Source: a virus (lineage: Duplodnaviria > Caudoviricetes). Taken from it: DNA of 62,977 bases. The translations under genes and the position numbers were made by a program. Shown piece after piece: positions 18,258-41,395 of this stretch (positions are counted from its first letter, which is position 1; the number at the start of each line of letters is the position of its first letter). The notes beneath the pieces were generated by a model. The model was not told the DNA's origin. It did no database searches and worked only from the letters and a program-made list of their open reading frames with translations. Where the stretch lies: positions 1 through 62,977 of IMG/VR virus record IMGVR_UViG_3300022821_000003; one strand, 5' to 3'.

Positions 18258-18776
18258 TCATAACATTATTTCGTCCATTATTATTTGCTTAGGTAAAAAA
18301 TTATAGCAGTAATAACTGCTACTGAATGTTATCTTCTTCTGTCCATCGAAATCTATCCTTTTATCAAACATAAGTAACTGTAAGTCCTTATCCTTAAAAA
18401 GCTTTTTAGGTGCTGAATCATTTAACCATGTATTAGTCATCAGGAGAGCAAAAGGTTTGTTAAAAGATAAAGCTCTTTCAAATATTTGTCTTTTTCTGGT
18501 AAAAGGAGGATTACTAATTATTATATCCCATGATTCTGGTTCATATATATAATAATCCTTTCCACTATCTATGTGAGAAAAAACGACCTTATGTCCAGCA
18601 TCTACAAGAACTTTAACAAACTCACTATCCTCTTTATCAAACGGACACCAAATAACACTATCAGAATTTATGTATTTTAATAACGGTCTAACAGCATATG
18701 CTGGTGTATAGTTCTCATCGTTATTCCCTTTAGAATATAATATTTCTTTACTATTCATATTTTTAATTTTCTCCAT
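18258..18776 (-). CDS. Putative N6-adenine DNA methyltransferase
   Basis: DENYTP, IWCPFD and IISNPPF motifs. Confidence 0.7.
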   Translation of the reverse strand: MEKIKNMNSKEILYSKGNNDENYTPAYAVRPLLKYINSDSVIWCPFDKEDSEFVKVLVDAGHKVVFSHIDSGKDYYIYEPESWDIIISNPPFTRKRQIFERALSFNKPFALLMTNTWLNDSAPKKLFKDKDLQLLMFDKRIDFDGQKKITFSSSYYCYNFLPKQIIMDEIML

Positions 18777-19062
18777 CTAACATACCCCTCCTTCTTATCC
18801 ATGCCCTAAAGCTTTCTCCCCACTCTTCAGATTTGGTCTTCCCTCTATTCTTTTCAAACTCGAAGCATTGTTCATTGTAGCTTTTAACAGATTGCTTCTC
18901 ATTAGGGCATGCATATCCCATATCTTCATAATTGACATTATTACACCATCCAGCCATTAATCCATCGTTGAAAACAACAGATGGCTCTGTGAATGTATAA
19001 ATTTGGTCTATCAATCTAGTAGATCCTGAAGTTGTCGTCCTATAGCCCATTGTATATGCCAT
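18763..19062 (-). CDS. Hypothetical protein with YNxxC tag (YNEQCFEFEK)
   Basis: ORF with the shared motif. Confidence 0.65.
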   Translation of the reverse strand: MAYTMGYRTTTSGSTRLIDQIYTFTEPSVVFNDGLMAGWCNNVNYEDMGYACPNEKQSVKSYNEQCFEFEKNRGKTKSEEWGESFRAWIRRRGMLDGEN

Positions 19063-19227
19063 ACTATTTTATTGAATACTTAGAGGTTATTATGAATCTA
19101 TCCTTAAGTAATTTATTAAATTCCTTCTTAGTTATCTTCCCTTTTTCTTCTGTTAGGATAGAAACATTCTCATAATCTTCTAACCAGTCCAATATAGTCT
19201 TTTTAATATCCATGCTTTTTTTATTTG

Positions 19228-19274
19228 GCTAATATTAGCGAAAGTGTTTATAAAGATATTTAGCTAATGTTAGC
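19228..19274. promoter_or_regulatory. Two copies of the palindromic GCTAAT(A/G)TTAGC candidate operator
   Basis: Copies at 19228-19239 and 19263-19274; others at 28073, 42937 and 42996. Confidence 0.45.
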
Positions 19275-19392
19275 CATTTCTTACTTAATTTGTCTGTTTT
19301 GAGACCTCTCAAGGGTACTTATGTACCACTTTTACGATTTTGTTCGCTACGGGGCTTATATCGCCTTATTATGAGCTCTGAATTGTTGTTAG

Positions 19393-19464
19393 CACGAAGT
19401 TATGGAATCGAACCACAATGTTCGGTTTTGGAGACCGACATAATAACCGTTATATGAACTTCGC
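19393..19464 (-). tRNA. tRNA-Trp (CCA)
   Basis: Cloverleaf: acceptor GCGAAGT/ACTTCGT, anticodon arm TCGGT-CTCCAAA-ACCGA, T arm TGTGG-TTCGATT-CCATA. Confidence 0.85.
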
Positions 19465-19472
19465 TCACTTGC

Positions 19473-19619
19473 TTAAGTGACATTAAACAATTTTCTATTC
19501 TTCCATTCTTCTTGTTTAGCGTCATTCCAGTTAGATACTGGTCGCATGAATCCTGTCACACGACTATACACTTCGCATTTTTGTCTACCCTCATTTGTTT
19601 CTGTTGTCTTTGCAGCCAT
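19473..19619 (-). CDS. Stand-alone NrdD C-terminal glycyl-radical-motif peptide (48 aa)
   Basis: Manual translation ...CEVYSRVTGFMRPVSNWNDAKQEEWKNRK matches the class III RNR C-terminal motif. Confidence 0.75.
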   Translation of the reverse strand: MAAKTTETNEGRQKCEVYSRVTGFMRPVSNWNDAKQEEWKNRKLFNVT

Positions 19620-19661
19620 ATGTTTTTTTTGTTTTAGTTTTTAAAGATACATCTTTGTGTC

Positions 19662-20066
19662 TTAAGTGGAAATTGTAATCTCCACTCTTGGATCCGTCTT
19701 ATCAATTTCTCCACTACAATAGTATGTAGAAAGAATGTGTGTGTCGTCATCATCTTTAATGCAGCCACACTCTGTGAGTGCATCGCAAAAAAACTTCTCA
19801 TGTATAGATAGAACGTTAGCTCTATCTGATAGCCTCTTAGAACCTTTGAATAGTTTAAACTCTAGCCTAAGAGGCATATCAAACTTAAGACCTCTGAGTT
19901 GGTCTTTAATATCCTCCTTGTACTTCTTCTTGACTTCGTTACTTATAAAATAATTCCAATTTCTATAGTTATTCAAATTCAAAATCACTTTACGATCAGC
20001 CTTTGTCTTACGTGGTAGCATTACATAAAGTGGTGCTATTATCATTTTTCTAAACATTGTACGCAA
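19662..20066 (-). CDS. RusA-like Holliday junction resolvase
   Basis: DRANV...FFCDALTECGCIKDDD...PRVEITI pattern. Confidence 0.7.
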   Translation of the reverse strand: MRTMFRKMIIAPLYVMLPRKTKADRKVILNLNNYRNWNYFISNEVKKKYKEDIKDQLRGLKFDMPLRLEFKLFKGSKRLSDRANVLSIHEKFFCDALTECGCIKDDDDTHILSTYYCSGEIDKTDPRVEITIST

Positions 20067-20069
20067 TCT

Positions 20070-20297
20070 TTACTTATTCAAACATGCACTCTTTAAGAAG
20101 CTATGATTTCTAATTCTAGTAAACATAGCTAATCTTTCTGGGTCTTGCTCTGTTACACTACACCAGAGGAAGAAAGCAGGATTATTCTTAATATAGTCTA
20201 ATCTTTCGTCTATAACTTCCCTGTCTGTAGTTTTAACTAAACAGTCTTTGAATGCCTTTCCCAAAATGTTTATGCATCCCTTTGTTTTATATTTCAT
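20070..20297 (-). CDS. Hypothetical protein
   Basis: ORF tightly packed in the operon. Confidence 0.5.
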   Translation of the reverse strand: MKYKTKGCINILGKAFKDCLVKTTDREVIDERLDYIKNNPAFFLWCSVTEQDPERLAMFTRIRNHSFLKSACLNK

Positions 20298-20575
20298 TAT
20301 TTCTTAGTGCTTCCTTTTGCCTTACTTAGTTTTCCCCCGTTTCGCCTGTCGTGCTCTTTATTGTGTTTCCCAATTGCACTAATCCCTTTGCCAGGTTTTA
20401 GTTTGACAAAGTTACTCTTTTTGTTATCGCCCTTTTTTCCGTTCTTGTGATGTATAAGCTCCCCAGGTTTTGCTTTAGTTATCTTCCTTCTATAGTCAGA
20501 TGATTTCCCACCCTTCCAACGTCCGTTCTTTTTCCCTGGTCTAGCCATATTAGGATTCTTTCCTACTGGTGGCAT
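20297..20575 (-). CDS. Basic HNH-like protein (possibly degenerate)
   Basis: NGRWKGG and IHHKNGKKGDNKKSN...H motifs. Confidence 0.5.
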   Translation of the reverse strand: MPPVGKNPNMARPGKKNGRWKGGKSSDYRRKITKAKPGELIHHKNGKKGDNKKSNFVKLKPGKGISAIGKHNKEHDRRNGGKLSKAKGSTKK

Positions 20576-20592
20576 ATTTTTTTAGTCGAGTA

Positions 20593-21291
20593 TCAATCTC
20601 TTTTAGATTCGACCTCTGCACTGTTATTTTTTAAATCAACTTCTTCGACTTTTTCTAATCTTTTAATCCCAGCCTTAAAATATTCTTCATCTAATTCCAT
20701 CCCTATATATTTTCTTCCTAATCTTTTGGCTGCGACCAGAGTGCTTGAACTACCACAGAATGGGTCTAGCACTATATCACCTTCCTCAGTTGTCTCTCTT
20801 ATTAATAATTCTAAAAGCTCTAATGGCTTTTCAGCGATATGAGACATCTTTGTATGGTGCATTCTCTTAACACTAATTAAATTAGCTACGTTATGATTCT
20901 TAGTTTTGAAAGCTCCTTTTGTTAGAACTAATATCAACTCGTATTGTGGTCTGAAGTTCCATCCCATTCCAAAATGCATCTTATTCCAAACAATAGTGTT
21001 TTTATGAATGAAACCAGCGTTTCTAGCCTCTCTCATAAAAACATCTATTGTAGACCATCCACAAAAAACAAGTGAAACATTTTTAGATATCCTATATATT
21101 TGTTTATAAAATGACGGAACCCAATCTAATTCTTTGTCGTTTTTTATCTCAACTCCAGAAAACTTAGACCCTTTTCTACTAGCTTTCATACTAATTCCGT
21201 ATGGAGGGTCACAAAATATTAAATCGATTGATTCGTCTTCGATATCTTTCATTAGTTCTAAACAATCTCCTTTTAAAAGTTGACTAATCAT
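20593..21291 (-). CDS. DNA methyltransferase (N4-C/N6-A, beta class)
   Basis: GDCLELMK, DPPY, EKPLELL and VLDPFCGS motifs. Confidence 0.9.
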   Translation of the reverse strand: MISQLLKGDCLELMKDIEDESIDLIFCDPPYGISMKASRKGSKFSGVEIKNDKELDWVPSFYKQIYRISKNVSLVFCGWSTIDVFMREARNAGFIHKNTIVWNKMHFGMGWNFRPQYELILVLTKGAFKTKNHNVANLISVKRMHHTKMSHIAEKPLELLELLIRETTEEGDIVLDPFCGSSSTLVAAKRLGRKYIGMELDEEYFKAGIKRLEKVEEVDLKNNSAEVESKRD

Positions 21292-21505
21292 TTGATAGTT
21301 TTACCTGTTTTTTAATTTCTTCTTTAATTCTTTTAATCCTTTTCTTGCTTGCGTTGATGCAATAAACTTTATCTTCAGCTAAACTTATCTTAAGTTTCTC
21401 TGCAAGATACTCTGCAACTACTAAAGCTAATTTTGGGTCTGATGTTTCAACAACTGTGTCGAAATCATAGTGCTCAAAATTGAAAGGCTTGTCTGCTCTT
21501 ATCAT
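21284..21505 (-). CDS. Hypothetical protein
   Basis: ORF overlapping its neighbours in operon fashion. Confidence 0.5.
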   Translation of the reverse strand: MIRADKPFNFEHYDFDTVVETSDPKLALVVAEYLAEKLKISLAEDKVYCINASKKRIKRIKEEIKKQVKLSND

Positions 21506-21860
21506 AATACTTTTTATTAGTTTGTAAAAATTCTACGTCTTCTTTAGTTTTAATGTACCATATTGATTCTAGATATTTCTTTGTCTTTAATAAATACTTT
21601 CTTCTCACATCAAATGAATGTATTGACGGTAAATTACGACGTCCTTCTGGCATGTGATTTCTAAAGTTATTTAATGGTGCTACGTTGAATGGGCTGTTTG
21701 ATATTCTCTTCAGAATATGATGAAGAGCATCTGCATCATTTCGTCCGTCTTCCCAATCTAAACAGTAGCCACCAAAGTCAAATAATTCTCTAGTCTTTGT
21801 ACTGAAATTGTTTTTCATATTATCTACTAATGGTGTGGAGTTAAAAACCATTGCCAGCAT
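21474..21860 (-). CDS. Hypothetical HNH-like protein (true start probably at MKNNFS)
   Basis: LHHI...N...N...H pattern. Confidence 0.4.
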   Translation of the reverse strand: MLAMVFNSTPLVDNMKNNFSTKTRELFDFGGYCLDWEDGRNDADALHHILKRISNSPFNVAPLNNFRNHMPEGRRNLPSIHSFDVRRKYLLKTKKYLESIWYIKTKEDVEFLQTNKKYYDKSRQAFQF

Positions 21861-21991
21861 TTCTATTTTTTATGGTAGTGGTTCCTCAATACTAATCTTC
21901 GTGTTGCAACACGAAGATGTTCTATTCTCACCACCTTTTACATTTTAGGCTGTACCTCTCCACCATCAGTAGACAATTGTTTACAAGCAAA

Positions 21992-22250: not shown

Positions 22251-22356
22251 CTTTACTTGTAAATTGTTTTCCATAATTACTCACTGATGGAGAGGGGCTG
22301 GTAGGGTTGCCGCCCTAGACATTCCAACACACCTCAAACAATGAGCAATCGTTATT

Positions 22357-28068: not shown

Positions 28069-28335
28069 CTCTGCTAATGTTAGCCATAGAATCGCTGTTT
28101 TTAAAACATTTTTTTATTTATATTTATTTTTTATAATTGAATCTTTAACTCTATGTAATAACTTATGAGAAACATTATTATTAAAAATATTGTTAAGCAT
28201 ACATTAAATTTCCATCCACTCTTTATTATCATAAATGTTTTATTCTTCATTATGTCTATCCTTATTATAGATATGAGATAATAGTATTATTAGTAATATC
28301 AATTCCATTTTGTTTATACTTATTTAATAAATTTG

Positions 28336-28407
28336 AGCCATGAGTAGGAGTCGAACCTACGATCCAGGATTTGCAGTCGAGAGCCTTTCCGTCTTGGCTA
28401 TCATGGC
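28336..28407 (-). tRNA. tRNA-Cys (GCA), anticodon stem with two mismatches (possibly degenerate)
   Basis: GCCATGA/TCATGGC acceptor, U73, GTAGG-TTCGACT-CCTAC T arm; anticodon stem CTCGA/TCCTG. Confidence 0.7.
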
Positions 28408-28410
28408 ATA

Positions 28411-28557
28411 CTAGACTTTCCAGTAATATTCGCATTGACCATCCTTGCTAGGATTCTTCATGAAATAAGATTGCATCATACCAGCCTTAGCTGTATATCG
28501 ATAGCAAGTCTTTTTTCTTTTACAATTTTTTCCTCCACATTTTGTTATATCTGTCAT
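28411..28557 (-). CDS. Cys-rich small protein MTDITKC... (paralog 1, 48 aa)
   Basis: Manual translation; near-identical to 29246..29425. Confidence 0.7.
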   Translation of the reverse strand: MTDITKCGGKNCKRKKTCYRYTAKAGMMQSYFMKNPSKDGQCEYYWKV

Positions 28558-28997: not shown

Positions 28998-29277
28998 AAT
29001 TCCCCCTTTTAGAAAGAGCGTCTATAACATGGATAGTTTGTCCTCGCCAGAAGTAGTCTATTAAATAGTTTATTATCTCCTCTGGAGTTTTGTTGTCAAA
29101 AAGAGTGTGATAGTCTTCATGTCTGTATTTGTCCAAATAAACTATATTCTTATTTGTTGTCTTGCCTCCTCTGGAGCCAGGAATGATATGGTGTCTAGTG
29201 AACTCTCTGCCTTCAGACTTCTTTTTGTCTATACGTCTTTTCTCCTTACGAAGTTTCCTTTTTTCTTTGGACGCCAT
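28990..29277 (-). CDS. HNH-like protein
   Basis: TRHHIIPGSRGGKTTNKNI...H...H pattern. Confidence 0.65.
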   Translation of the reverse strand: MASKEKRKLRKEKRRIDKKKSEGREFTRHHIIPGSRGGKTTNKNIVYLDKYRHEDYHTLFDNKTPEEIINYLIDYFWRGQTIHVIDALSKRGNYV

Positions 29278-29425
29278 TTGTTACCTCCCAATAGTATTCA
29301 CATTCATTATGTTGATTTGGATTAGCTAGGAAATAAGATTGCAGCATACCAGCTTTAGCTGTATATCGATAGCAAGTCTTTTTACGCTTGCACCCTTTTC
29401 CTCCACACTTTGTTATATCTGTCAT
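29246..29425 (-). CDS. Cys-rich small protein MTDITKC... (paralog 2)
   Basis: Paralog of 28411..28557; start assigned to ATG 29425 by homology. Confidence 0.7.
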   Translation of the reverse strand: MTDITKCGGKGCKRKKTCYRYTAKAGMLQSYFLANPNQHNECEYYWEVTNGVQRKKETS

Positions 29426-29510
29426 ATTTTTTATCTTACTGACACCCAAGAACAATTCTTGGATGTTAATTAAATATTCCCAACATTACTGCTAAGTGTC
29501 AGTAAGCTAT

Positions 29511-31521: not shown

Positions 31522-31920
31522 TTAAAATGCTCCAGTTAATATCTCATCTAAACTTTCATCTAAGTCTATTAATGCTTTTCTTTTATTAGATTTCCCTCTA
31601 TTCTTTTCAAACTCAAAGCATCTATCATTATAGTCTTTTGGTGTCTTAGGAATTACAGCTTTCTTTAGTCTTAAATCAAATCTACTATCGAATTCAGCCA
31701 CATAAAACTGTTCTGAATATCTGTATCCATGACTACCAGGTCCTAATGCATCTCCATCTAACTCATCATAATCAGACAGAAGAAATATCTCTCTACCATT
31801 TTCAGCCTCAAGTAAGAAAGCCTCTGTCCAATCATCTTCATAGCTGCATTTCATTTCTACTATATCTCCTGTATTATATTGTATGCTATTTATTACTATC
31901 ATATCTATGACATCTTTCAT
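31522..31920 (-). CDS. YNxxC-tag family protein (YNDRCFEFEK)
   Basis: Shared tag; internal GYRYS motif. Confidence 0.7.
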   Translation of the reverse strand: MKDVIDMIVINSIQYNTGDIVEMKCSYEDDWTEAFLLEAENGREIFLLSDYDELDGDALGPGSHGYRYSEQFYVAEFDSRFDLRLKKAVIPKTPKDYNDRCFEFEKNRGKSNKRKALIDLDESLDEILTGAF

Positions 31921-32209
31921 TATAATATTCTACCGACATATCTAACTTCTTTAATATTAAACCACCACTATCAAACTCAAAAGCTACAAAACACCAAGAA
32001 TATTTATAGTTATTGTCTCTTATATATCTAGGATAACTACCTTCAAAATGGTTATTGTTACCAAGGATATAGAATAAGTCATCATTATCTGAATTGTAAA
32101 TAATCTTACCTTCAGTAAAATCTTTATCCATTGAGTATTTAAACAATACTAAATCTTTATTTTTTATGTTCTTTATCATATATGTGACATTCTTTATTAT
32201 AGTCCTCAA
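31886..32209 (-). CDS. YNxxC-tag family protein (YNERCHRYDS)
   Basis: Shared tag; internal YKYSW motif. Confidence 0.7.
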   Translation of the reverse strand: MRTIIKNVTYMIKNIKNKDLVLFKYSMDKDFTEGKIIYNSDNDDLFYILGNNNHFEGSYPRYIRDNNYKYSWCFVAFEFDSGGLILKKLDMSVEYYNERCHRYDSNK

Positions 32210-32483
32210 CTGTTAAATATATCTTAATGAAGTCTTCCATATTTGGATGTATATCGTATTCACTTAAACTTCCAGATTCATGACATATCCGATATGAACA
32301 ACTGAATCCATGTTTATTACGTGCAGACCATCCATCTAAGCTTAATTTATCAGTAAGAACAAAATAGTAACCATCTTCTATTACAACCATAGCATCAATC
32401 TCTTTTTCTTTTCTACCATCAAATACATCAATCCATAAAAGCTTTATCCTTTCTTTGTTTTTAAATATTTTTATATCTAACAT
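32157..32483 (-). CDS. YNxxC-tag family protein (YNKECHIYDK)
   Basis: Shared tag; internal GFSCSY motif. Confidence 0.7.
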   Translation of the reverse strand: MLDIKIFKNKERIKLLWIDVFDGRKEKEIDAMVVIEDGYYFVLTDKLSLDGWSARNKHGFSCSYRICHESGSLSEYDIHPNMEDFIKIYLTVEDYNKECHIYDKEHKK

Positions 32484-32797
32484 TTGTTTTTATCATAATC
32501 AAAACATATCTCATTATATTCCTTTGATGATAGATTAGTTTTAGTTATTGTATCATAACTATCAGGGAGTCCACAGTTAGTCAATCTCCAGGAGTATCTA
32601 TATCCAAACATCTCCTTTGCTCTTGCTCCTCCACCTAATGCATTACTGTCAGAGCAGATATAATATTGTAGACCATAATCTGAATTATGGATTGATATCT
32701 TTCCTTTAAAACTCCTATATTTAGATGAAGTGATAACAGAGTCTCCATGTTTAAAAATCCCAAGACCCTCATTACTCTCTATATGACTATAGTTCAT
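32477..32797 (-). CDS. YNxxC-tag family protein (YNEICFDYDK)
   Basis: Shared tag; internal GYRYSW motif. Confidence 0.7.
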   Translation of the reverse strand: MNYSHIESNEGLGIFKHGDSVITSSKYRSFKGKISIHNSDYGLQYYICSDSNALGGGARAKEMFGYRYSWRLTNCGLPDSYDTITKTNLSSKEYNEICFDYDKNKC

Positions 32798-33244
32798 AAA
32801 AAAACGATTACTCTGGTAAAGTCGGTTGTGACTTGTTAAGCAGAGTTCTCTTTATAGATAGACTTATATTAAAATTAGGGGGAGAAATACTATGATATCG
32901 ATTCAGTTATCGCTAACATTCGCATAGTATCCGACAATCTTTTAGGGTTTGTGTTTCCCCTAGTTATAGCACATTTTACATCGTTTTGTCTATAGTCTTT
33001 CCGATGGTAGATCCAACTACTGCTATATTATTTACTGTGATTTACTCTGTATAAAGTTCGGCGTGCCGTCTCACAGTGAGAATCCCATTTATTTAGAGTC
33101 CACGGATTCAAACTTATGTTCTCTATGGACTTATATAATGCCTTATATAAAGCTAGACACCAATAGGCTTCTCTATTAGTATGTAGCTTTATATCTGCCA
33201 TTGTGACTTGAGTGGATAAAAGATTCTTCTTACCCTACATATTA

Positions 33245-33274
33245 AGTATAGCATACTCGAGTCAATTTTGTCAA
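33245..33274 (-). promoter_or_regulatory. Sigma70-type promoter TTGACA-18-TATACT with extended -10
   Basis: Consensus match. Confidence 0.6.
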
Positions 33275-33345
33275 GTCTTTTCGACCCCTTAATCTTAGCT
33301 AATCTTAGCCTTAGAATATGAGGGCTAAAATAAATATTTCTGAAA

Positions 33346-33621
33346 CTATTTTTTGTCAAATAAAAAACACGTTTCATTGTACTCAACTGTGGATAACTTT
33401 ATGTGTTTCAGAGATGATACTCCAGAATTATTTTCAGAATCATCCAACCTATTTTCAGAGAACCACCAACCAAAAATATATGTGTCTTTATCTAATGATA
33501 ATTTATCATCGCAATTAAACATAATACAGATATCACCACCAGCGACATCATTATAGATAATCCCGTTGACTTTAGATCCATATCTTGTGATTTCAATTCT
33601 ATCTCCCTTCTTATACTCCAT
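33346..33621 (-). CDS. YNxxC-tag family protein (YNETCFLFDK)
   Basis: Shared tag; KKGDRI SH3/KOW-like start. Confidence 0.7.
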   Translation of the reverse strand: MEYKKGDRIEITRYGSKVNGIIYNDVAGGDICIMFNCDDKLSLDKDTYIFGWWFSENRLDDSENNSGVSSLKHIKLSTVEYNETCFLFDKK

Positions 33622-33931
33622 ATAAATCTTTGTTGTCTTTCCAAGTTTTTCTAGCCTTTAAGAATTCATCAAAGGTTGAGAAATCATCTACAGCGACATA
33701 TCCAAGGAACAATAACTCAGTCTTGATTGGTTTATTATATTTCTCATCTAACTCTATAAAAGGTAGACTCGATAGTATTTCGAATCTACCTATAAGACCA
33801 GACTTCATCCTAAGTTTGATTGTTGTTCCTTTACATTCATAATGCTCTAGCATTAGAGTAGCATCACAGAATCTACGATTAATTCTAGCTAGATATTCTT
33901 TATGTTTCTTTCTAAATATATATTTTTTCAT
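33611..33931 (-). CDS. Hypothetical protein
   Basis: ORF preceded by the repeated motif. Confidence 0.55.
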   Translation of the reverse strand: MKKYIFRKKHKEYLARINRRFCDATLMLEHYECKGTTIKLRMKSGLIGRFEILSSLPFIELDEKYNKPIKTELLFLGYVAVDDFSTFDEFLKARKTWKDNKDLYGV

Positions 33932-33950
33932 AGTGACTTAGGTGGATTAA

Positions 33951-34670
33951 TTAAAATGGCATTGGCTCAACAGGGATGCCAGCCGACATAGTAGCACCAG
34001 AGGGCACAGGAGGGGCATCAGGCGTTTTATTTGCATGGTCTGCCTTAATGTGTATGAGACTGTTAAGGTCTACGTATATGGAAGGTGCTATCTGGTTAAT
34101 CTTTAGAGCATGTTTCCTTACCATGTTTCCGATAAGACCTCCTATAACTAAACAGTTAAAAGAGATAGACCTACCAGTGCATTGTTCATGGTCGACAGCT
34201 CCTGGTTCTACTGTAGATAATAAGTAGGTTCTTGATTTATAATAATGTAGTTCAAATGATAAGCCTCCCATTCTTCCATCTATTATTGTTAAATCCTTAT
34301 CTTTATATATCTCTCCTAATCTTATTCTCTCTGCCATCGAATCTATTGTTATTATGATAAGACCATCTACAATATACTCCTCTTCTTTTATATTCTTCAT
34401 GATAGATATTGTAGTTCCTGTCTGTTCAAAGACATTTTTAGCTAGTGCCTTGACCTTGAACTCTCCGAGTTGGTCTTCTTTGTAGAACTGAGATGCTATG
34501 TTATGATTCTCTACCTTATCATTGTCATAGACAGTAATGTTACTGCATCCGACTTTAGCAAGTGTTAATGCAACCCAACTTCCTATCCCACCTGCTCCAA
34601 GGATATGTATTGGAAACCTTAAGTCTCCAGCTTTTATGATGTCGAGTTGTCTACTATATCTTTTAGACAT
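33951..34670 (-). CDS. E1-like ThiF/MoeB-family adenylyltransferase
   Basis: RYSRQ, ILGAGGIGS, YDNDKVENHNIASQ, KVKAL and IDGRMG motifs; candidate catalytic Cys in HEQCT. Confidence 0.9.
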   Translation of the reverse strand: MSKRYSRQLDIIKAGDLRFPIHILGAGGIGSWVALTLAKVGCSNITVYDNDKVENHNIASQFYKEDQLGEFKVKALAKNVFEQTGTTISIMKNIKEEEYIVDGLIIITIDSMAERIRLGEIYKDKDLTIIDGRMGGLSFELHYYKSRTYLLSTVEPGAVDHEQCTGRSISFNCLVIGGLIGNMVRKHALKINQIAPSIYVDLNSLIHIKADHANKTPDAPPVPSGATMSAGIPVEPMPF

Positions 34671-34671: not shown

Positions 34672-35700
34672 CTATTGTTTTAGTTCATGACCATTACCTA
34701 ATCCTTTAATATCAGAATCGATAATATCATCTTCTTCAGATGAATCATTAACATTTTTATATGAATTAGCTATGTATCCATTGACAGCATCGTATTCATC
34801 TCCGTATAAATTACCATACTTTTCATAATAATCATCACAGATACAAAAGGTTACTGGATTATAACAATCAGGACAAAAGATTATTTCTTCATCGCTTTCT
34901 TCTAATCTTTCACACTCTTCACATCTCCTATCATCAACTCCATAGATTATATCATCAAGTTTATTTTCGAAAGTAGCCTTGTCCGTTCTGCCAAAGAATG
35001 AGTCTTGCGTTTTTTTTTTAGATTTTTCATAAGTCCTCTCAACTTTATAGACTTTTTCCCTAACCTTAGCTTTAACTTCAGCCTCACATTCAGAATATAT
35101 CTCTGGGCAATAGAATAAGAGTTTCTTTGTCTCAGCAATCTCATCATCTTTTTTAGATATTTCATCTTCTAAAGCTGATTGTTCTTCCTCTAATTTAGAG
35201 ACAGTTTCTTCTATAACTTTATCCAGATCTTCATCAATGAGAATCTCTACATCAACCTTTGTTTCATGTGGAGCAAAGACTAAACCAAAGTCAGATGGGT
35301 CTAACGGAAGCACATCGATACGTCCTAAAAACTTTCCCTCCTTATTCGTAACGATTGATATAAGTTTCTTATTGTCTTTTACATGCTCCTTTATTGTATC
35401 ATCATCTGTAGTTGACCACGAAACACCTAAATCTCCATGTGTATGCCACCAAACATTCCAGTCCTTTAATGACTCTTTAGCTTTAGACATATCATACATA
35501 AACTTAGCCATTGCTCCAGTATCTAGGTTAGTCGATGCAGAACCACATTCTTGGTCAAAAAGTGCTATATCTATTAACATAATCTCACCATCCTCTGTAA
35601 TAACACTCTTTCCCATCCCAGAGACTTCTCCAGGTGCATGATGAGTGTAGGCAGCGAGTTTGATTGCTGTTTTATTTTCTATTAATATTTTTTCTACCAT
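34672..35700 (-). CDS. JAB/MPN metalloprotease (deubiquitinase-like) with coiled coil and Cys-rich tail
   Basis: GEVSG and WWHTHGDLGVSWSTTD (HxH-x7-S-x2-D). Confidence 0.85.
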   Translation of the reverse strand: MVEKILIENKTAIKLAAYTHHAPGEVSGMGKSVITEDGEIMLIDIALFDQECGSASTNLDTGAMAKFMYDMSKAKESLKDWNVWWHTHGDLGVSWSTTDDDTIKEHVKDNKKLISIVTNKEGKFLGRIDVLPLDPSDFGLVFAPHETKVDVEILIDEDLDKVIEETVSKLEEEQSALEDEISKKDDEIAETKKLLFYCPEIYSECEAEVKAKVREKVYKVERTYEKSKKKTQDSFFGRTDKATFENKLDDIIYGVDDRRCEECERLEESDEEIIFCPDCYNPVTFCICDDYYEKYGNLYGDEYDAVNGYIANSYKNVNDSSEEDDIIDSDIKGLGNGHELKQ

Positions 35701-35706: not shown

Positions 35707-36819
35707 TTAAGTGGATGAAAGCTCTTCTCCACAATCTGGACAATCACCATCTTCATTAATAGTTACAGAACGCTCGCAGTTCTCACAATATGCACTCGTA
35801 GTATTTAAGTTCTTGAAGTCTTCAGCAAACTTACGACCATCCCATTTCTCATTTTCATCCCAGTAAATATTAGAAAACCAATCGATTTCATTCTCTGGCT
35901 TAATAGTTACAGTCTGAGCACAAAAGAATTCTTCCTCTTGAATATATGGATTACCATAGTCTGGTTTTTCTAAGAATATAATTAAAAGATAAGCTAAACC
36001 GATTATATTCCCTTCATTCCTTAACTTCATGACCTCATCACCCACACTCTCTCCTAAACATAAAGTTGAATTGTTTATACAAGGATGGTGGTATTTGAAC
36101 CTGTCTTTATGTCTCTTGTAGTTTATTGCTCTGACTCTTTGACCAGAATCTAATGGGATTAAAATTTTATATGCACCTAAAGTAAAGTCTCCTAATGATG
36201 ATCCTTCTCTATGATATACTAAATCATTAGTTGTGATTAGAACACTTTTATATCCATCAGATTCTATTGGGTCTACTGATGCTATCTTCTTATTAGACAT
36301 AAACTTATCATACTTGGAAACAAGTTCATCCACATTAACTGTTAGTCCTCTTTTACTTTTAATTAAGTCTGCAAGCTTATGATTGTCACCTTCTATCTGT
36401 AGTTCTTTTCTAGATAAATCTGCAGCAAGACTTCTTGCAGTAGATACTAAAGAACGTAATGAATCTTCTTTAGACCTAATCTTTATTGGTAACTCAGATA
36501 TTTTCTTGAAAGCAAGTTCTCTAATCAATCCAACAAATGCACGTTTCTTTTCATCTGATAAATCAACAGAACTATCTAAATCAGACTCTTTGAATAGCAA
36601 ACTATATCCATTCATTCTATCTGTCCTATTCTCTAATGTATGACAGAACGGATGTTCGTCATCAAAAGCAATGTTTAACATACTATCTCTAATCTCGATA
36701 ATTGTTCCTTTATATTTATTATCTTCTACATCAAACAAATCTTTATTTGACATAAAAGGTTTAAAGTTTTTGTTAGTAACGATTCTATCACCAACATAGA
36801 CTTTTGTATTTTTTCTCAT
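35707..36819 (-). CDS. E2-like (Prok-E2) protein with N-terminal SH3-like domain, coiled coil and C-terminal Zn ribbon
   Basis: HHPCINNSTLCLG resembles the E2 HP...CL active site; lies between the Ubl and JAB genes. Confidence 0.7.
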   Translation of the reverse strand: MRKNTKVYVGDRIVTNKNFKPFMSNKDLFDVEDNKYKGTIIEIRDSMLNIAFDDEHPFCHTLENRTDRMNGYSLLFKESDLDSSVDLSDEKKRAFVGLIRELAFKKISELPIKIRSKEDSLRSLVSTARSLAADLSRKELQIEGDNHKLADLIKSKRGLTVNVDELVSKYDKFMSNKKIASVDPIESDGYKSVLITTNDLVYHREGSSLGDFTLGAYKILIPLDSGQRVRAINYKRHKDRFKYHHPCINNSTLCLGESVGDEVMKLRNEGNIIGLAYLLIIFLEKPDYGNPYIQEEEFFCAQTVTIKPENEIDWFSNIYWDENEKWDGRKFAEDFKNLNTTSAYCENCERSVTINEDGDCPDCGEELSST

Positions 36820-36822: not shown

Positions 36823-37086
36823 TTATACACCATCTTCTAGCTCAAACTCTTCTCTTTCGAGCATACAGCCAGTCGAATTACTTAATAATCCATTCAAATG
36901 ATTTGTAAAGCTTAAACCTCGACCGAATCTAATGCCATAAAAGCTACTCTTTCGAGTCACGATTATACCACGAAACCGTTCTTGCTTTAAATCAATCTCT
37001 TTTCCCTTGTTGTCTTTAGGACTAAATCTTGGAGTTGTTTTTATAAAATCTCCAACATAAGCTCTTTTGACGGTTTTTCTTTTCAT
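36823..37086 (-). CDS. SH3-like small protein, paralog of the E2 N-terminal domain
   Basis: YVGD...F.P...GII...I.F...H.L..G pattern shared with the first ~85 residues of 35707..36819. Confidence 0.6.
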   Translation of the reverse strand: MKRKTVKRAYVGDFIKTTPRFSPKDNKGKEIDLKQERFRGIIVTRKSSFYGIRFGRGLSFTNHLNGLLSNSTGCMLEREEFELEDGV

Positions 37087-37129
37087 AGTGACTTAAGTGG
37101 ACAAATGTCCTTAATTAAATTATAAATAA

Positions 37130-37154
37130 AAGAGGCTATAACTGATAGCCTCTT
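37130..37154 (-). terminator. Hairpin terminator/attenuator downstream of the Ubl gene
   Basis: AAGAGGCTAT/ATAGCCTCTT stem followed by a T-rich tract on the - strand. Confidence 0.55.
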
Positions 37155-37164
37155 GTTCTATAAT

Positions 37165-37401
37165 CTATAAAAGACCACCTTCTTTACGACCAACGATTTG
37201 AAGTGTATCACCATCTTCAAGTTTGTCGTCCAATTTGATTGGATCAGTTTCACCATTCATGTGAACAGCCTCTGATGAACCAACTGTCATGTTAGCCTCT
37301 TCTAAAACAAATCTTAGAGTAGATTCGTCAGGAACTCTAACAGTTACTGATTCTTCTCCAAACTTGGTAATCTCTACTGAGATTAATTCACTTCTTTGCA
37401 T
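37165..37401 (-). CDS. Ubiquitin-like beta-grasp protein, C-terminus ...EGG-LL
   Basis: 78 aa with ThiS/MoaD/Ubl-like VHMNG...LEDGDTLQIV followed by a diglycine. Confidence 0.85.
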   Translation of the reverse strand: MQRSELISVEITKFGEESVTVRVPDESTLRFVLEEANMTVGSSEAVHMNGETDPIKLDDKLEDGDTLQIVGRKEGGLL

Positions 37402-37479
37402 TTAATTGTGGGAAATTATATATACACTCAGGAACATATAATTATCCAATTATTAATAATATATAACACCCCGAAGGGT

Positions 37480-37833
37480 CTATATTGTATCTGCGATAAA
37501 ACACTTTTCATTATAAGCCTTAGCTATATCTTCAGGTGTCAACTCTGGGTCTTCCTCACAGTAGTCATAACCATCTCTATCTGGATATGGTAAAGGACAA
37601 TCACTTTCTATTGCATCTAGATTTTCTAAGTCTTCACAGTCTAGTTTATAGTTACATTTTGGACAGATATAAGAAATATCATCGTTCTCATAACTACTTT
37701 CATGTTGGTCGTGCATATCCATATCTCCACAAAAGGATATTGTTCCATTTTCACTTCCCCAAGTCGTATATTGAGCTGTATAATCTAGGTGGTCTATTTC
37801 TTCTTTGCACTTAGGACATCTTGTTATCGCCAT
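37480..37833 (-). CDS. Zn-ribbon acidic protein with YNxxC tag (YNEKCFIAD)
   Basis: CPKC...CPKC plus the shared tag; immediately upstream of the Ubl gene. Confidence 0.65.
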   Translation of the reverse strand: MAITRCPKCKEEIDHLDYTAQYTTWGSENGTISFCGDMDMHDQHESSYENDDISYICPKCNYKLDCEDLENLDAIESDCPLPYPDRDGYDYCEEDPELTPEDIAKAYNEKCFIADTI

Positions 37834-37838
37834 ATATT

Positions 37839-38231
37839 TTATCTAAATTTATTTAATTGTTTTACACTAACATTAGCCAATCCTAGCTTACTATCTGATA
37901 TTGTACTAAAAGCCGTACTTGATAAGTCTATTATTCTATCTGGGTATGTTGATTCATCTGGTCCATAATCTGTTATAAGGACTTCTACTGACTTACCATT
38001 ATCTAGGTTGGTTACCTCAACAAAAGAATATCTTATGAAGTCTCTCGTTGCACAAACATAATGTCCTATACTTGACCAATCTCCTATTGTATAGTCATAA
38101 TAGCTTGCTACTCCAGTTAATACTTTATCATCATTCTCAGGGAGGAAGTATCGATTTGATTCTTGCTCCTTATTACTGGAACATGAAGACAAAAAAAGTA
38201 TTAAGATAATTATTATTGGTATCTTTTCCAT
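37839..38231 (-). CDS. RlpA-like double-psi beta-barrel lipoprotein
   Basis: Lipobox LSSC; GVASYY, VTNLDNGKSV, TDYGP and RIIDLSSTAF motifs. Confidence 0.85.
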   Translation of the reverse strand: MEKIPIIIILILFLSSCSSNKEQESNRYFLPENDDKVLTGVASYYDYTIGDWSSIGHYVCATRDFIRYSFVEVTNLDNGKSVEVLITDYGPDESTYPDRIIDLSSTAFSTISDSKLGLANVSVKQLNKFR

Positions 38232-38455
38232 AGTTTTTTATCAAATTTATGACATGCTTCATTATATTTCTCTGGTGTTTCATTATATAAAGATATGTTT
38301 TCAAAAAATACTCCACCATTATTTTTTGGACGCCATGCTATACCTTCACCAATCGATTCTATCTTAAAAACGAGACCGAGTTTCCATCCAGCATCAGGAA
38401 TCATTCCTCCCATTCTATTATGACATATAACAACATCTCCAACTTTAAATTTCAT
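38213..38455 (-). CDS. YNxxC-tag protein (YNEACHKFDK)
   Basis: MKFKVGDVV SH3-like start plus the shared tag. Confidence 0.7.
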   Translation of the reverse strand: MKFKVGDVVICHNRMGGMIPDAGWKLGLVFKIESIGEGIAWRPKNNGGVFFENISLYNETPEKYNEACHKFDKKLWKRYQ

Positions 38456-38608
38456 AGTGACTTAAGTGGATTAATTAATAACTTCTGCACATTTGCTATA
38501 TGTCTGCTATATCACAGAGTTTACATGCAGAATGATAATACTTACCATGTTTATAAAATTCTTTTAATTCTTTGGTCTCTTTACATCTAATACATTCTTT
38601 CATATTCA

Positions 38609-39058
38609 CTAGAACGAACCCTCTGCCACTTGAAGACATTTAAGACCAAGCTCCCTCCACATTTGGACGACTTGATTCCTGTCATCAAGGACAAATAGTA
38701 TATTATATTTATCTTTTACATTTGCATCAAACAACTCTCTCTTGACGATACTATCCCTTCTATTATCTTTATTGGTTCTCATAAACAAATCATCATAAGG
38801 GATATCATTAGTCATTAACCATTCAAGAGTTACATCTTTACAGTCTTCATCTCTCCCAGACAACAATATTATTCTGTAATCATCTGCTTTATACTTCTTT
38901 ACAATGTCTAAGATGTGATAATGAACTCCATCGCCTATTGCTTTATGATATTCGAATGGTGTTCTGTCAATCATGTAGGCTAAAGTGCCGTCAATATCGA
39001 CGATTAATGCTTTAGGTAGATATGCTCTATCTATTGCTATATTTTTTATCTTTGTCAT
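38609..39058 (-). CDS. Polynucleotide 3'-phosphatase (HAD; C-terminal half of T4 PNKP-like)
   Basis: DIDGTLA, LSGR, LFMR, RRDSIVK and DDRNQVV motifs. Confidence 0.9.
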   Translation of the reverse strand: MTKIKNIAIDRAYLPKALIVDIDGTLAYMIDRTPFEYHKAIGDGVHYHILDIVKKYKADDYRIILLSGRDEDCKDVTLEWLMTNDIPYDDLFMRTNKDNRRDSIVKRELFDANVKDKYNILFVLDDRNQVVQMWRELGLKCLQVAEGSF

Positions 39059-39368
39059 AGTTAAAACATTTTAAATTATAATCTTTTGTTGATTGTTTAA
39101 ATGGTTTTATTACACTGAATTTATTTTCATATTGCCAATGATTATCATAACAGTTTATAGTCCATCCATATTTATAATCAGAACAAGAATTAATTATTGG
39201 GTTGCCTCCCCTGTAATCAGGATTGTTGGATACAAACATAAAATAGTCATATTCTTCTGATGTTTTGTATATCTTCCCAACTGTTGAATGTCCAGAGTTA
39301 CTCACTACAACTACATCTATCGGTTCATCTTTTTTTAATTTTAATAGTTTTTGTCTAAATGCTTTCAT
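39027..39368 (-). CDS. YNxxC-tag family protein (YNLKCFNYDK)
   Basis: Shared tag; internal YKYGW motif. Confidence 0.7.
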   Translation of the reverse strand: MKAFRQKLLKLKKDEPIDVVVVSNSGHSTVGKIYKTSEEYDYFMFVSNNPDYRGGNPIINSCSDYKYGWTINCYDNHWQYENKFSVIKPFKQSTKDYNLKCFNYDKDKKYSNR

Positions 39369-39382
39369 ATATTTTATCTATG

Positions 39383-39885
39383 TTGCGAGAGTGGGATTTG
39401 AACCCACGACCTCATGGTTATATTAAAGCACTATCAATAACAAAATCTTTAGCCCAAAGGATTGTACTAATACAAAGATTATTTTTAGGTTTTTGATATC
39501 TTAAAGTTATTGTTGTTTTCTTTAACATATCTCCAGAGATTATATATACTTTATCTAATTTTTCGCACCAGATAGCTATATAATCTACCTTCTCGTAGCA
39601 TGATTCATATTTGATTCTTTTAGAACCAATTCTTTTACGAATATCTGCAACAACACATCCATTAGATGTTTTACCATGTTTTATTTGTATTTTTTTTAAA
39701 GTTCCATCAAAATCAGCTATCATATCATATGGTTCGTTATCTCCGAACGGCAATGAAACTGGATAGCCTCTTTTAATAAACTCAGCAATAATAACACCTT
39801 CTGCCTTATTTCCCTTTGATTTTGTATTCATAATTTAATAATGCACTAATGAGCCATGCGAGCTACCTGACTGCTCTACCTCGCT
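39383..39885 (-). tRNA. tRNA-Met(CAT), initiator-like, split by a 429-nt insert (exons 39851-39885 and 39383-39421)
   Basis: The joined halves give AGCGAGG TA GAGC AGTCAGGTA GCTC G CATGG CTCATAA CCATG AGGTC GTGGG TTCAAAT CCCAC TCTCGCA A, with a 1:72 mismatch and A11-U24. Confidence 0.85.
39418..39831 (-). CDS. PD-(D/E)XK homing endonuclease, I-Ssp6803I-like, inside tRNA-fMet
   Basis: TKSKGNKAE...PFGDNEPYDMI...IQIK resembles the group I intron-associated PD-(D/E)XK family. Confidence 0.8.
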   Translation of the reverse strand: MNTKSKGNKAEGVIIAEFIKRGYPVSLPFGDNEPYDMIADFDGTLKKIQIKHGKTSNGCVVADIRKRIGSKRIKYESCYEKVDYIAIWCEKLDKVYIISGDMLKKTTITLRYQKPKNNLCISTILWAKDFVIDSALI

Positions 39886-39924
39886 ACAAACCCACGATAT
39901 GTGGGTTTGTGACTTAAGTGGATT

Positions 39925-40299
39925 CTATAGATAGTTACTTCCTTTTAATTCTTTCAAGATTTTAGCTATTGCTCTTGGTCCTTGTGCATTTAAAATCTTG
40001 TCTAGTTTGTCTGCAACGAAATCCTCTTCTGTTTCATACTTTTGATAGAAATCTAACTCTTCTTGAATCTCTTTAATTTCAGACTGTAATCTCTTGATTA
40101 GCTTTTTTCTATTCTCAAAGACGAATTCATCATTTGGATAAATACTGACGCTTCCACCCCTTTGGTCGTCGTTTGCTGAGAAACAACCACCACCATTGAT
40201 AGCTGAAACTCTTAACAGCCTCCCGACATAAGATGTTCCTCCGTGTAGAGATTTTTTTAAGATGATCTCATCACCTATAATAACTCTAGGATTTTTCAT
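39925..40299 (-). CDS. Hypothetical protein (SH3-like plus coiled coil)
   Basis: ORF with IGDEII start. Confidence 0.6.
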   Translation of the reverse strand: MKNPRVIIGDEIILKKSLHGGTSYVGRLLRVSAINGGGCFSANDDQRGGSVSIYPNDEFVFENRKKLIKRLQSEIKEIQEELDFYQKYETEEDFVADKLDKILNAQGPRAIAKILKELKGSNYL

Positions 40300-40765
40300 A
40301 GTTTATTTTAAATTAATAATAGTGACTTATTGTTTTATCTACAATATTATTTTATAATAGTTAATGATAATATTGTTACAAATGTAGCACAAAACAACGA
40401 CCTAGCAACACTCTTAGCGACACGAGTGGAATGAGGCTTGGTGACGTTTTGCACTGTAAAGTTTTTTTGATCGCCATCACATAGAGCAGTGGCGATATAG
40501 TTGTGTCTTTTCATCTCCTTTTGTTTCCTTAACAGCATGACTCACTACTGCAATAGGATTATTATATATATATGTTGCCTCAGATATACTACAATCTTGT
40601 TCATAGGCAATCTTTTTTATAGCATTTTTAATCATATTGATTAATCTTATTAAATAATTGTCAAGTTAAGCTAGATAGAAACTCATAGATACGAAGTTCA
40701 TAACAAGTGTCGTTTGTACGGACTTGAGATGGATTGCCTACCGATAGGTCATTTATATCTATTCT

Positions 40766-40794
40766 ATTATAACATAGTAAGAAAGTATTGTCAA
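40766..40794 (-). promoter_or_regulatory. Consensus sigma70 promoter TTGACA-17-TATAAT with extended -10
   Basis: Perfect consensus, enclosed by inverted repeat 40665-40678/40803-40816. Confidence 0.8.
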
Positions 40795-41131
40795 GCAATA
40801 TACTATCTAGCTTAACCCAACAATCATTATATTCGATGTTGGGCGAAAAACAAATATTTTAATACTAATATTCGGCAAAAAGAAGCTTGTCAATTAATAT
40901 TAAAATCCTTATTTTTTAGACATTGTGAACCATGCTTATCGGCTTGTTTTATTCATCCCAGCTTGCACGAGGATTCTGATGAAAAATTTAATGCGTTCAT
41001 CTTCTTTACGCAACCGATATATTAAATTGTGTCTAAACGAGCTGATGCTATAATCATTATAACGACATCTAATGTAACTCGATACATTTTCGCTATATCT
41101 AACATCTTTACTTTATTACGATATGCTGTTA

Positions 41132-41395
41132 TTATTTTATAATACATAATTTTGAGTCATATTCATGACATTGTTTATTATAATCTATTGATGAAAAAGG
41201 ATATGGTTCAATATGGTGCTCGTAACATCCAATCAACATTTTATTAGACCAGTAAATACCAGTAGGGCTACCCTTACTATAACTATCTATAGTAAAGATA
41301 TCTCCCACTTTAAAGCCATTATCTCTATTATAACTATTAGAACCTAATTCTGTTGTTGCGATAACTCTAACTGTTTGACCTATTTTATACTTCAT
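41132..41395 (-). CDS. YNxxC-tag protein (YNKQCHEYDS)
   Basis: MKYKIGQTVRV SH3-like start plus the shared tag. Confidence 0.7.
   Translation of the reverse strand: MKYKIGQTVRVIATTELGSNSYNRDNGFKVGDIFTIDSYSKGSPTGIYWSNKMLIGCYEHHIEPYPFSSIDYNKQCHEYDSKLCIIK

Follow-up and report, generated by a model that had tools for sequence, protein, structure and literature searches.

Ten small open reading frames (ORFs) of an uncultured virus, known from the record IMGVR_UViG_3300022821_000003 (Duplodnaviria; Caudoviricetes), encode proteins that carry at or near their C-termini a common short peptide built around Tyr-Asn-x-x-Cys, which we call the tail. The stretch of DNA analysed, hereafter the window, is a complete virus record of 62,977 bp with direct terminal repeats and ~33% G+C, and comparison with 50,697 phage records by megablast and tblastn found no cultured phage resembling it at the DNA or protein level. 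The tail-bearing genes belong to a block of ~18.0 to 42.5 kb that is set off by a strand switch, is transcribed leftward and consists of non-structural genes (methyltransferases, a PD-(D/E)XK nuclease, a polynucleotide-kinase-type phosphatase and many small ORFs), among them a cassette of genes for an E1-like protein, a JAB-type metallopeptidase, an E2-like candidate and a candidate ubiquitin-like protein (Ubl). We confirm that the shared tail is real, and find it stronger than was recorded in an earlier note on this DNA that had been made from the sequence alone; the tail is probably a shared docking handle, and its link to the Ubl cassette is plausible but weak.

The tail, its bodies and its predicted helix

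The ten tail-bearing ORFs are listed here with their lengths in amino acids (aa), the position of the nine-residue motif and the type of body that precedes it.

18763..19062, minus strand: tail-bearing ORF, 99 aa; YNEQCFEFE at 18853-18879, followed by 29 residues; body unrelated to the GYKYSW core
31522..31920, minus strand: tail-bearing ORF, 132 aa as listed (126 aa in P0008); GYKYSW-type body; YNDRCFEFE at 31606-31632, followed by 27 residues
31886..32209, minus strand: tail-bearing ORF, 107 aa as listed (97 aa in P0001); GYKYSW-type body; YNERCHRYD at 31898-31924
32157..32483, minus strand: tail-bearing ORF, 108 aa; GYKYSW-type body; YNKECHIYD at 32175-32201
32477..32797, minus strand: tail-bearing ORF, 106 aa; GYKYSW-type body; YNEICFDYD at 32492-32518
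33346..33621, minus strand: tail-bearing ORF, 91 aa; GYKYSW-type body; YNETCFLFD at 33355-33381
37480..37833, minus strand: tail-bearing ORF, 117 aa; zinc-ribbon-like body (two CxxC pairs); YNEKCFIAD at 37489-37515
38213..38455, minus strand: tail-bearing ORF, 80 aa; small SH3-like-looking body; YNEACHKFD at 38240-38266; its ortholog on the metagenome contig L009 (see below) ends YNKICFKYDNKL
39027..39368, minus strand: tail-bearing ORF, 113 aa; GYKYSW-type body; YNLKCFNYD at 39054-39080; its L009 ortholog is P0022
41132..41395, minus strand: tail-bearing ORF, 87 aa; small SH3-like-looking body; YNKQCHEYD at 41156-41182

The earlier note had reported a common motif near the C-terminus of ten ORFs, and all ten ORFs and their motifs are present, on the minus strand and in frame. 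The strict form that it gave, YN..C[FH].[YF][DE], finds nine six-frame matches and does not cover the tenth ORF (37480), which has an A at the eighth position; the invariance of Tyr, Asn and Cys, also claimed there, holds among all ten window tails. The strict motif occurs 0 times in each of 30 mononucleotide shuffles, and the looser pattern YN..C...[DE] recovers exactly the ten (shuffle mean 0.57, maximum 4). Aligning the tails reveals a conserved stretch that is longer than first noted, [S/T]-x-x-[D/E]-Y-N-x-x-C-[F/H]-x-[Y/F]-[D/E]-[K/S/T], with a Lys after the acidic residue in 7/10 window tails. The motif starts 11-38 codons upstream of the stop codon in the ten ORFs, and 2-8 residues follow the nine-residue motif in eight of them and 27 or 29 in the other two. 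A degenerate DNA pattern retrieves 9/10 tails and nothing else on either strand of the 62,977-bp record (a control pattern retrieves 0), and a tail-only hidden Markov model (HMM) built from the tags scores the ten at 28.7-32.6 bits against 4.5 bits for the next best stop-to-stop frame, so that there are no degenerate or decayed extra copies; six-frame, DNA-pattern and tail-HMM searches found no out-of-frame or intergenic copies in the window either. None of the ten ORFs matches a family in Pfam, PHROGs or NCBIfam at the thresholds used, Pfam and PHROG searches place none of them in an F-box, SOCS-box or PRANC family, and nothing comparable appears in the literature found; the earlier note, too, had known of no described family with this tag.

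Beyond the window, a word-indexed search of 5.8 billion proteins with an alignment of the ten tail-bearing members (A1) returned near-identical copies only. When 1.84 billion representatives were searched exhaustively with a profile, 25 matches reached E <= 0.001, and among them the non-identical tail-bearing proteins were P0010 (YNERCHSYD) and P0022 (YNLICFEYE) only; the remaining new matches are larger phage-type proteins without the tail, all but one of which (P0014) carry two to six '...CQN...G...lGYKYSW' repeat units. Judged by these searches, the tail-bearing family is rare. The body of six members corresponds to an uncharacterised domain of ~80 aa, which stands in tandem in P0011-P0013 and P0016-P0026 (190-631 aa, metagenomic and phage-type), and P0014, with 754 aa, has eight matched stretches without the lGYKYSW motif. 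No Pfam or PHROG family was found for the GYKYSW repeat proteins.

The earlier note had also held that about six members share a divergent body, that the others are unrelated and that the tail behaves as a portable module, and these points stand. Six of the ten have the 'lGYKYSW' body, and the tail-less bodies of the other four (18763, 37480, 38213 and 41132) reach <=1.7 bits, which is noise, against a body-only HMM made from the six GYKYSW members, P0010, P0022 and the repeat units of the other phage proteins. By this measure the tail sits on at least three to four bodies without detectable mutual relationship. Homology of the tag bodies to the N-terminal domain of the E2-like protein, to the 87-aa ORF of the cassette or to the 39925 ORF, proposed by eye, is unsupported by the A1 profile and by the body-only HMM.

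An AlphaFold2 model of the 39027 ORF (20-row alignment) has a mean predicted local distance difference test (pLDDT) score of 83.2. In it a helix at the N-terminus is followed by a barrel of six strands, and residues 94-111 form a C-terminal helix that takes in the tail and reaches a pLDDT of 86-87 in this monomer model. The barrel has weak Sm/Hfq-like neighbours in Foldseek: the best PDB match is Hfq at E ~0.09 (0.085), the best BFVD match is a cyanophage 'Sm-like domain-containing protein' at E = 0.019, the template modelling (TM) scores are 0.33-0.5 overall, and no match in the PDB or BFVD reaches E <= 0.001. No Sm, Hfq or SH3 family model in Pfam or PHROG matches any of the ten ORFs, and an Atlas look-up with the 39027 ORF gave nothing above chance level. 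The model may be compared with the small Sm/Hfq-like and SH3-like barrels of phages for its N-terminal helix and bent beta-sheet, and differs from them in that all matches are weak (E >= 0.019) and the tail helix is without counterpart.

On a helical wheel that turns by 100 degrees with each residue, positions 0, 4, 8, 1, 5 and 9 of the tail, the conserved ones, fall at 0, 40, 80, 100, 140 and 180 degrees and the variable positions 2, 3, 6 and 7 at 200-340 degrees, which puts the conserved positions on one face. This face is predicted to be aromatic and hydrophobic, with the Cys in mid-helix on its hydrophobic side, and from established helix geometry the S/T-x-x-D/E ahead of the motif would fit a helix N-capping box. 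Since the same tail is found on bodies that cannot be related by HMM, the conserved face is unlikely to be tuned to one body; in terms of the modelled helix, a common external partner accounts more readily for a face that is kept from one unrelated body to another than packing on each protein's own domain would.

Conservation of the tail in a phage clade

Two relatives show what becomes of the tail as its proteins diverge. The first, L009, is a metagenome contig of 1,433 bp that is syntenic with the window and encodes, in this order, P0022, a phosphatase and the 85-aa ortholog of the 38213 ORF. Its two tails read YNLICFEYE and YNKICFKYD; the tail-bearing orthologs are 32% and 39% identical to the window proteins, whereas the phosphatase beside them is 74% identical to that of the window.

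The second, G001, is a distant sister phage, a viral record of 63,939 bp (99% complete) that was reached via a profile of homologs of the E2-like protein. It is collinear with the window over the whole leftward block at 26-67% protein identity (36% for the E2-like protein), in the order zinc-ribbon protein, phosphatase, 162-aa ORF, small SH3-like ORF, DPBB lipoprotein, Ubl, 87-aa protein, E2-like protein, JAB and E1, followed by a GY.Y.W-body protein and a run of small ORFs; G001 is classed as linear, and this order was read across the contig ends on the assumption that they are continuous. A cognate but shorter tail, [DE][YF]Nxx[YCF][LI], ends seven clear ORFs and one probable ORF in the corresponding neighbourhoods, as follows.

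C-terminal G001 tails, each running to the stop codon: DDFNKYYIK, DDFNKYCLKKSNV, DSYNRFYL, DEYNRLYLN, DYFNKYFND and EEFNKFFLIN
C-terminal G001 tail DNFNLRYLKL, running to the stop codon: on the zinc-ribbon ortholog of the 37480 ORF (BLAST E = 2.6e-4)
Probable G001 tail DYFNSLCL..., at ~22.3 kb (about 22349): positional counterpart of the outlying 18763 ORF

A regular expression written post hoc from five of the G001 tails gave six matches against a shuffle mean of 0.4, and all six lie on the coding strand with the motif start within 11 codons of the stop. The core common to the tails of the window and of G001 is [D/E]-[Y/F]-N-x-x-[C/Y/F]-[F/H/L/I]. The G001 tail is an acidic-aromatic peptide at the extreme C-terminus in which the Lys position is not conserved. 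At the position of the Cys the eight tails read Y, C, Y, Y, F, C, Y and F (four Tyr, two Phe and two Cys), so that the 'invariant' Cys is lineage-specific. The HMM of the window tails does not detect those of G001 (best 6.3 bits), and the equivalence of the two sets therefore rests on position, synteny and the short shared core. The tail has been retained while the bodies diverged to 32-39% identity (L009) or past recognition by BLAST (G001), and from the cognate tail and the same genomic neighbours in G001 it would follow that the tail is an old feature of the clade that has kept constant genomic company. The single GY.Y.W-body protein of G001 (L013 3298-3633) is without the FN/YN tail; it ends ...FDDWDAILF, which may be the tail in a further-decayed, acidic-aromatic form.

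Scans of viral contigs with single proteins (E1, the 39027 ORF, P0022 and P0010) and with a tandem two-tail DNA pattern gave no match. Those with the phosphatase and the PD-(D/E)XK protein recovered G001 again and eight further contigs, whose phosphatases are 34-37% identical and which carry no convincing tails (0-2 matches each to a relaxed regular expression, like the non-coding strand of the window). From these eight unrelated phosphatase contigs, and from the GYKYSW repeat proteins that lack a tail, it follows only that the tail is specific to the clade.

The Tyr-Asn codons of the tail read TATAAT in 8/10 window tails, and for this reason we examined whether the conserved element is a translated DNA or RNA signal, such as a -10 box, a device for translational coupling or a recombination linker. 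As a sigma-70 -10 box the TATAAT can be rejected: the window has 70 sigma-70-like sites, defined with a -35 partner at 16-18 nt, against a shuffle expectation of 66.5, a count at chance, and no tail TATAAT is among the best 60 of the 70. All ten tails are read in one frame, their distances to the stop and to the next start vary, and most G001 tails have TTTAAT where the window has TATAAT, with the remaining codons differing as well. Wobble positions vary freely: TAT:TAC and TGT:TGC are both 8:2 in the tails against 77:23 genome-wide, the Tyr, Cys, Phe/His and Asp codons follow the codon-usage proportions of the genome, and five codons serve for Ser/Thr at position -4 (TCT, TCG, TCA, TCC and ACA). 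The common frame, the varied wobble positions and Ser/Thr codons, the lack of -35 partners among the best 60 sites and the retention of the tail in diverging orthologs together argue for selection at the protein level. On the other side, the Asn codon is AAT in 20/20 tails (10/10 in the window, 8/8 in G001 on L013, L014 and L016, and 2/2 in L009), compared with ~72% of the Asn codons in the same window genes, a bias that may reflect a secondary nucleic-acid constraint; and 2/10 tails overlap with the junction to the next paralog, whose start ATG, on the gene calls of P0008 and P0001, falls within the TATGAT that encodes Tyr-Asp (31898-31903 and 32175-32180), so that some dual constraint is possible in these tightly packed genes. 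As an account of the tail itself, a nucleic-acid signal is already largely refuted and we regard it as very improbable.

A Bil-like cassette and its possible tie to the tail

The cassette beside which most of the tails are found, together with its immediate neighbour, comprises the following genes.

33611..33931, minus strand: 106-aa protein, function unassigned, downstream of E1; G001 homolog ~1 kb downstream of E1 (37% identity, E = 4e-11)
33951..34670, minus strand: E1-like ThiF-family adenylyltransferase, 239 aa; Pfam ThiF 64 bits (cut-off 28.1), residues 20-191
34672..35700, minus strand: JAB/JAMM metallopeptidase, 342 aa; coiled coil and Cys-rich C-terminal part
35707..36819, minus strand: E2-like candidate, 370 aa; SH3-like N-terminal domain, long helix, alpha/beta core and C-terminal zinc ribbon
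36823..37086, minus strand: 87-aa protein, paralog of the SH3-like N-terminal domain of the E2-like protein; kept in G001
37165..37401, minus strand: candidate ubiquitin-like protein, 78 aa, ending ...GG-LL

The earlier note had spoken of E1/E2/JAB/Ubl genes as a cassette. The E1 (ThiF) and the JAB (Rpn11-like) are supported, and the identities of the E2 and the Ubl were confirmed by no tool. The E1-like protein also matches the PADLOC E1-E2 models down to 5.8e-12. The JAB protein has the metal site HxH-x7-S-xx-D, which reads HTH-x7-S-TT-D in the translation, and matches Rpn11-like chains of the PDB at E = 6.8e-4 to 1.7e-2 over residues 21-130 (Pfam Prok-JAB, E = 0.064, is below the cut-off). 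The E2-like candidate has an invariant HHPC...C.G motif (H244, H245, P246, C247, C254 and G256 in 7 homologs), and its AlphaFold2 model (pLDDT 73.8, with the N-terminal 33 residues <50) runs through a helix, four strands, a loop and helices, an order that would fit a UBC core. The sole lead to an E2 is a weak one from the Atlas, in which 13% of the proteins of one cluster have UQ_con (score 0.76). The Ubl candidate matches Pfam TGS weakly (E = 0.097) and no PDB sequence; its end, GG plus two residues, fits processing by the JAB protein. The paralogy of the 87-aa protein and the E2-like protein is supported by cross BLAST to their G001 counterparts (E = 7e-9 and 2e-7), and the 37480 ORF, directly upstream of the Ubl gene, has a G001 ortholog that ends FNLRYLKL.

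The pairing recurs on L027, a 1.8-kb contig of an Acholeplasmataceae metagenome-assembled genome, where a Ubl-like ORF of 94 aa (364-648) immediately precedes a gene for a homolog of the E2-like protein with 317 aa (711-1664). The L027 homolog has the motifs HCC...CCLG and FLEKPDY, and a scan of genome contigs found no visible tail on L027. This arrangement in an unrelated source supports a functional pair of Ubl and E2-like protein, which would thus exist outside this phage clade.

With a supported E1 (ThiF) and JAB, the phage cassette is akin to the Bil-type (BilABCD) operons of bacteria, and its order, Ubl - (87 aa) - E2-like - JAB - E1, presumably matches that of BilA-B-C-D. It differs in being borne by a phage instead of a bacterial defence island, and in an E2-like protein that no E2 model recognises and that carries additional SH3-like, coiled-coil and zinc-ribbon parts. 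The bacterial system is outlined as a Ubl, an E1, an E2 and a deubiquitinase (10.1101/2023.09.04.556158), and a multigene tail family is absent from the available part of that description. Passages of PMC1779556 mention pairs of Ubl and JAB in phages only in connection with tail assembly, and the literature found does not cover a phage-borne cassette of this kind.

The tails cluster around the cassette. The earlier count of nine out of ten within about 4 kb is correct (the gaps run from 31920 to 33951 and from 37401 to 41132), and tails are found on 9/29 ORFs within 4.5 kb of the cassette against 1/29 of the more distant ORFs of that strand block (Fisher p = 0.012; 0.031 when only small ORFs are counted). 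Co-occurrence of the tail with the E1, JAB, E2-like and Ubl genes, which the earlier note had proposed to check, is seen in 2/2 complete genomes of the clade. A complex of E1, the E2-like protein and Ubl residues 1-76 with the 39027 ORF as partner was predicted with a score of 0.38 (runs 0.38, 0.38 and 0.33), compared with 0.00 for the best of three controls, one of which had the E2-like chain replaced; the runs agree in at least 37% of contacts and the pLDDT of the partner is at least 49. In calibration the tool's mark was reached by 58/80 solved complexes and 2/110 mismatched pairs, and passing scores of <=0.60 came from 7 of those 80 solved complexes plus both passing mismatches. The prediction thus amounts to weak, E2-dependent support for docking, and it gave no interface.

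Several observations weigh against a docking helix that has the E2-like protein or its cassette as partner. The clustering statistic treats five tandem paralogs as independent, so that 5/9 of the nearby members form one array, and the neighbourhood of the cassette is rich in small ORFs anyway; each genome also has one member that is ~15 kb away from the cassette, at 18763 in the window and at about 22349 in G001. Only two complete genomes underlie the co-occurrence, the contig scans found no clade member without the cassette, and the failure of the window-tail HMM on G001, given above, counts here too. The E2-like protein has no E2-family match in Pfam, NCBIfam, PADLOC, PHROGs or PDB sequence and profile searches, and no UBC chain is among the 50 Foldseek matches listed for its model. 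By the tool's own account, a score such as that of the predicted complex misleads more often than not unless the pairing was likely from the start, and the modelled helix may simply pack on its own barrel. Binding to the E2-like partner is weakly supported.

Some further features of the region are of note in their own right. Near-perfect sigma-70-type promoter-like sites stand on the minus strand at 40794-40766 (TTGACA-17-TATAAT with TG, 12/12) and 33274-33245 (TTGACA-18-TATACT, 11/12), and a terminator-like hairpin at 37154-37130, directly 3' of the Ubl gene and before the enzyme genes, could have a high Ubl-to-enzyme ratio as its effect. Two paralogous small Cys-rich ORFs (28411-28557 and 29246-29455, MTDITKCGGK.CKRKKTCYRYTAKAG...) have one homolog in G001. 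The phage has genes for tRNA-Cys (28335-28407) and tRNA-Trp (19392-19464), and a plus-strand protein of 1,742 aa (window 12798-18026) contains a J-domain-like stretch (...AYRKLAHKYHPDK...) that was recognised by eye in the translation.

Readings of the tail and their meaning

The earlier note had read the ten proteins as adaptors or E3-like proteins with a constant docking or catalytic-Cys helix. That reading is supported in part: the portability of a protein-level module, its co-occurrence with the cassette and the weak E2-dependent docking speak for the adaptor half, and the catalytic half is not supported. If the Cys were a thioester acceptor, the proteins would be minimal transthiolating E3 ligases, and its invariance in the 10 window tails, the 2 L009 tails and P0010 and the Asn three residues earlier on the same helix face would be in keeping with this. 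In the G001 tails, however, Tyr and Phe take its place in all but 2/8, which is a strong argument against a thioester-forming catalytic Cys as the mechanism of the family; the proteins have no similarity to any E3 family, and the residue is predicted to lie in mid-helix on the hydrophobic face. We consider a catalytic Cys extremely unlikely. The tail could also concern the cassette as a substrate mark, that is, as a Ubl acceptor or recognition site or a tag for timed degradation. The weak E2-dependent complex score would fit such a mark as well, and the frequent Lys after the acidic residue of the window tails would supply an acceptor. We know of no E3 in the bacterial Bil-type systems, in which the choice of targets is an open question, and direct recognition of substrates by an E2 is therefore plausible. 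Lys is common in an AT-rich genome, however, and its position is lost in the G001 tails, and a substrate mark has, in our judgement, a slim chance of being right.

Two further readings dispense with the cassette. The tail might dock on a hub of the host (polymerase, clamp, chaperone or protease), and the ten proteins would then form a host-takeover or anti-defence set without any tie to Ubl conjugation. Portability across unrelated bodies suits a host hub, as do the union of fast-evolving bodies with a constant tail, which is typical of host-interaction genes, the location of the genes in a non-structural leftward block among many small accessory ORFs, the one member per genome far from the cassette and the acidic-aromatic, extreme C-terminal tail of G001. 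Against it stand the dependence of the weak complex score on the E2-like chain and the enrichment of tails beside the cassette in two genomes; we think it rather unlikely, although likelier than the other rival readings. The helix might instead be a structural or self-association element that packs on its own barrel or zips homo- or hetero-oligomers, such as Sm-like rings or Cys dimers. The body model does resemble ring-forming barrels of the Sm/Hfq type (Hfq E ~0.09, viral Sm-like protein E = 0.019), and both the helix pLDDT of 86-87 in the monomer and the aromatic and hydrophobic character of the conserved face are compatible with packing, but conservation of the same face on unrelated bodies is hard to square with intramolecular contacts, and no Foldseek match reached E <= 0.001. 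Self-association is, on these grounds, unlikely.

The reading we prefer, tentatively and in the knowledge that it may well prove wrong, is that of a shared docking helix with the E2-like protein or its cassette as partner. Our results establish the motif, its conservation as a peptide, its helix as a prediction, its portability and a cognate tail in G001. We infer that the conserved face binds something external, and an adaptor-like architecture of constant box and variable bodies is supported. Under this docking model, ten fast-evolving small proteins of one uncultured phage clade would share an autonomous amphipathic alpha-helix, opened by a Ser/Thr-x-x-Asp/Glu capping box and continued by Y-N-x-x-C-[F/H]-x-[Y/F]-[D/E]-K, whose conserved face (positions 0, 1, 4, 5, 8 and 9) would bind one common partner. 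The variable bodies, which comprise the Sm/SH3-like 'GYKYSW' barrel, further small barrels, a zinc ribbon and a body of unclassified form, would do different things. For the partner, the leading candidate would be the Bil-like conjugation machinery that the phage itself encodes and, within it, the E2-like protein. The members of the family would then either bring substrates to this Ubl system as adaptors or be its substrates; the tail Cys would be a structural or contact residue and no thioester-forming nucleophile. A bolder form of the model, which we hold to be doubtful, is that the phage aims its own Ubl system by means of some ten interchangeable, fast-evolving adaptors that plug into the E2-like protein and tag host proteins, for example those of defence; such an adaptor set would be the counterpart, in a prokaryotic virus, of the F-box or poxvirus PRANC families.

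The likeness to F-box, SOCS/BC-box and poxvirus ankyrin/PRANC adaptors lies in a multigene family with variable bodies and a short, constant, helical C-terminal box. In those adaptors the box docks on a ligase core, and the poxvirus proteins are a virus-encoded, expanded family. The phage proteins differ in having no sequence relationship to them and in a tail of ~14-18 residues, far shorter than an F-box, and docking of the modelled tail on the cassette is weakly supported. The tail also recalls the clamp-binding motif and the C-terminal tail of SSB, which are likewise short, conserved and found C-terminally, or nearly so, on proteins that are otherwise unrelated; its motif differs from the sequences of those peptides, and the window tail is a longer, capped helix that is followed by 2-29 more residues. 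In kind, then, it would be a constant docking box on variable bodies, and no described family in Pfam, PHROGs, NCBIfam or the literature found matches it.

If the tail does plug small variable proteins into the cassette, it would provide a route to target specificity for a minimal E1/E2 system and, if true, would make this phage able to turn ubiquitin-like tagging against its host. Even with a partner from the host, these fast-evolving accessory proteins of a phage would illustrate cleanly, and from nature, how a docking helix can be portable.

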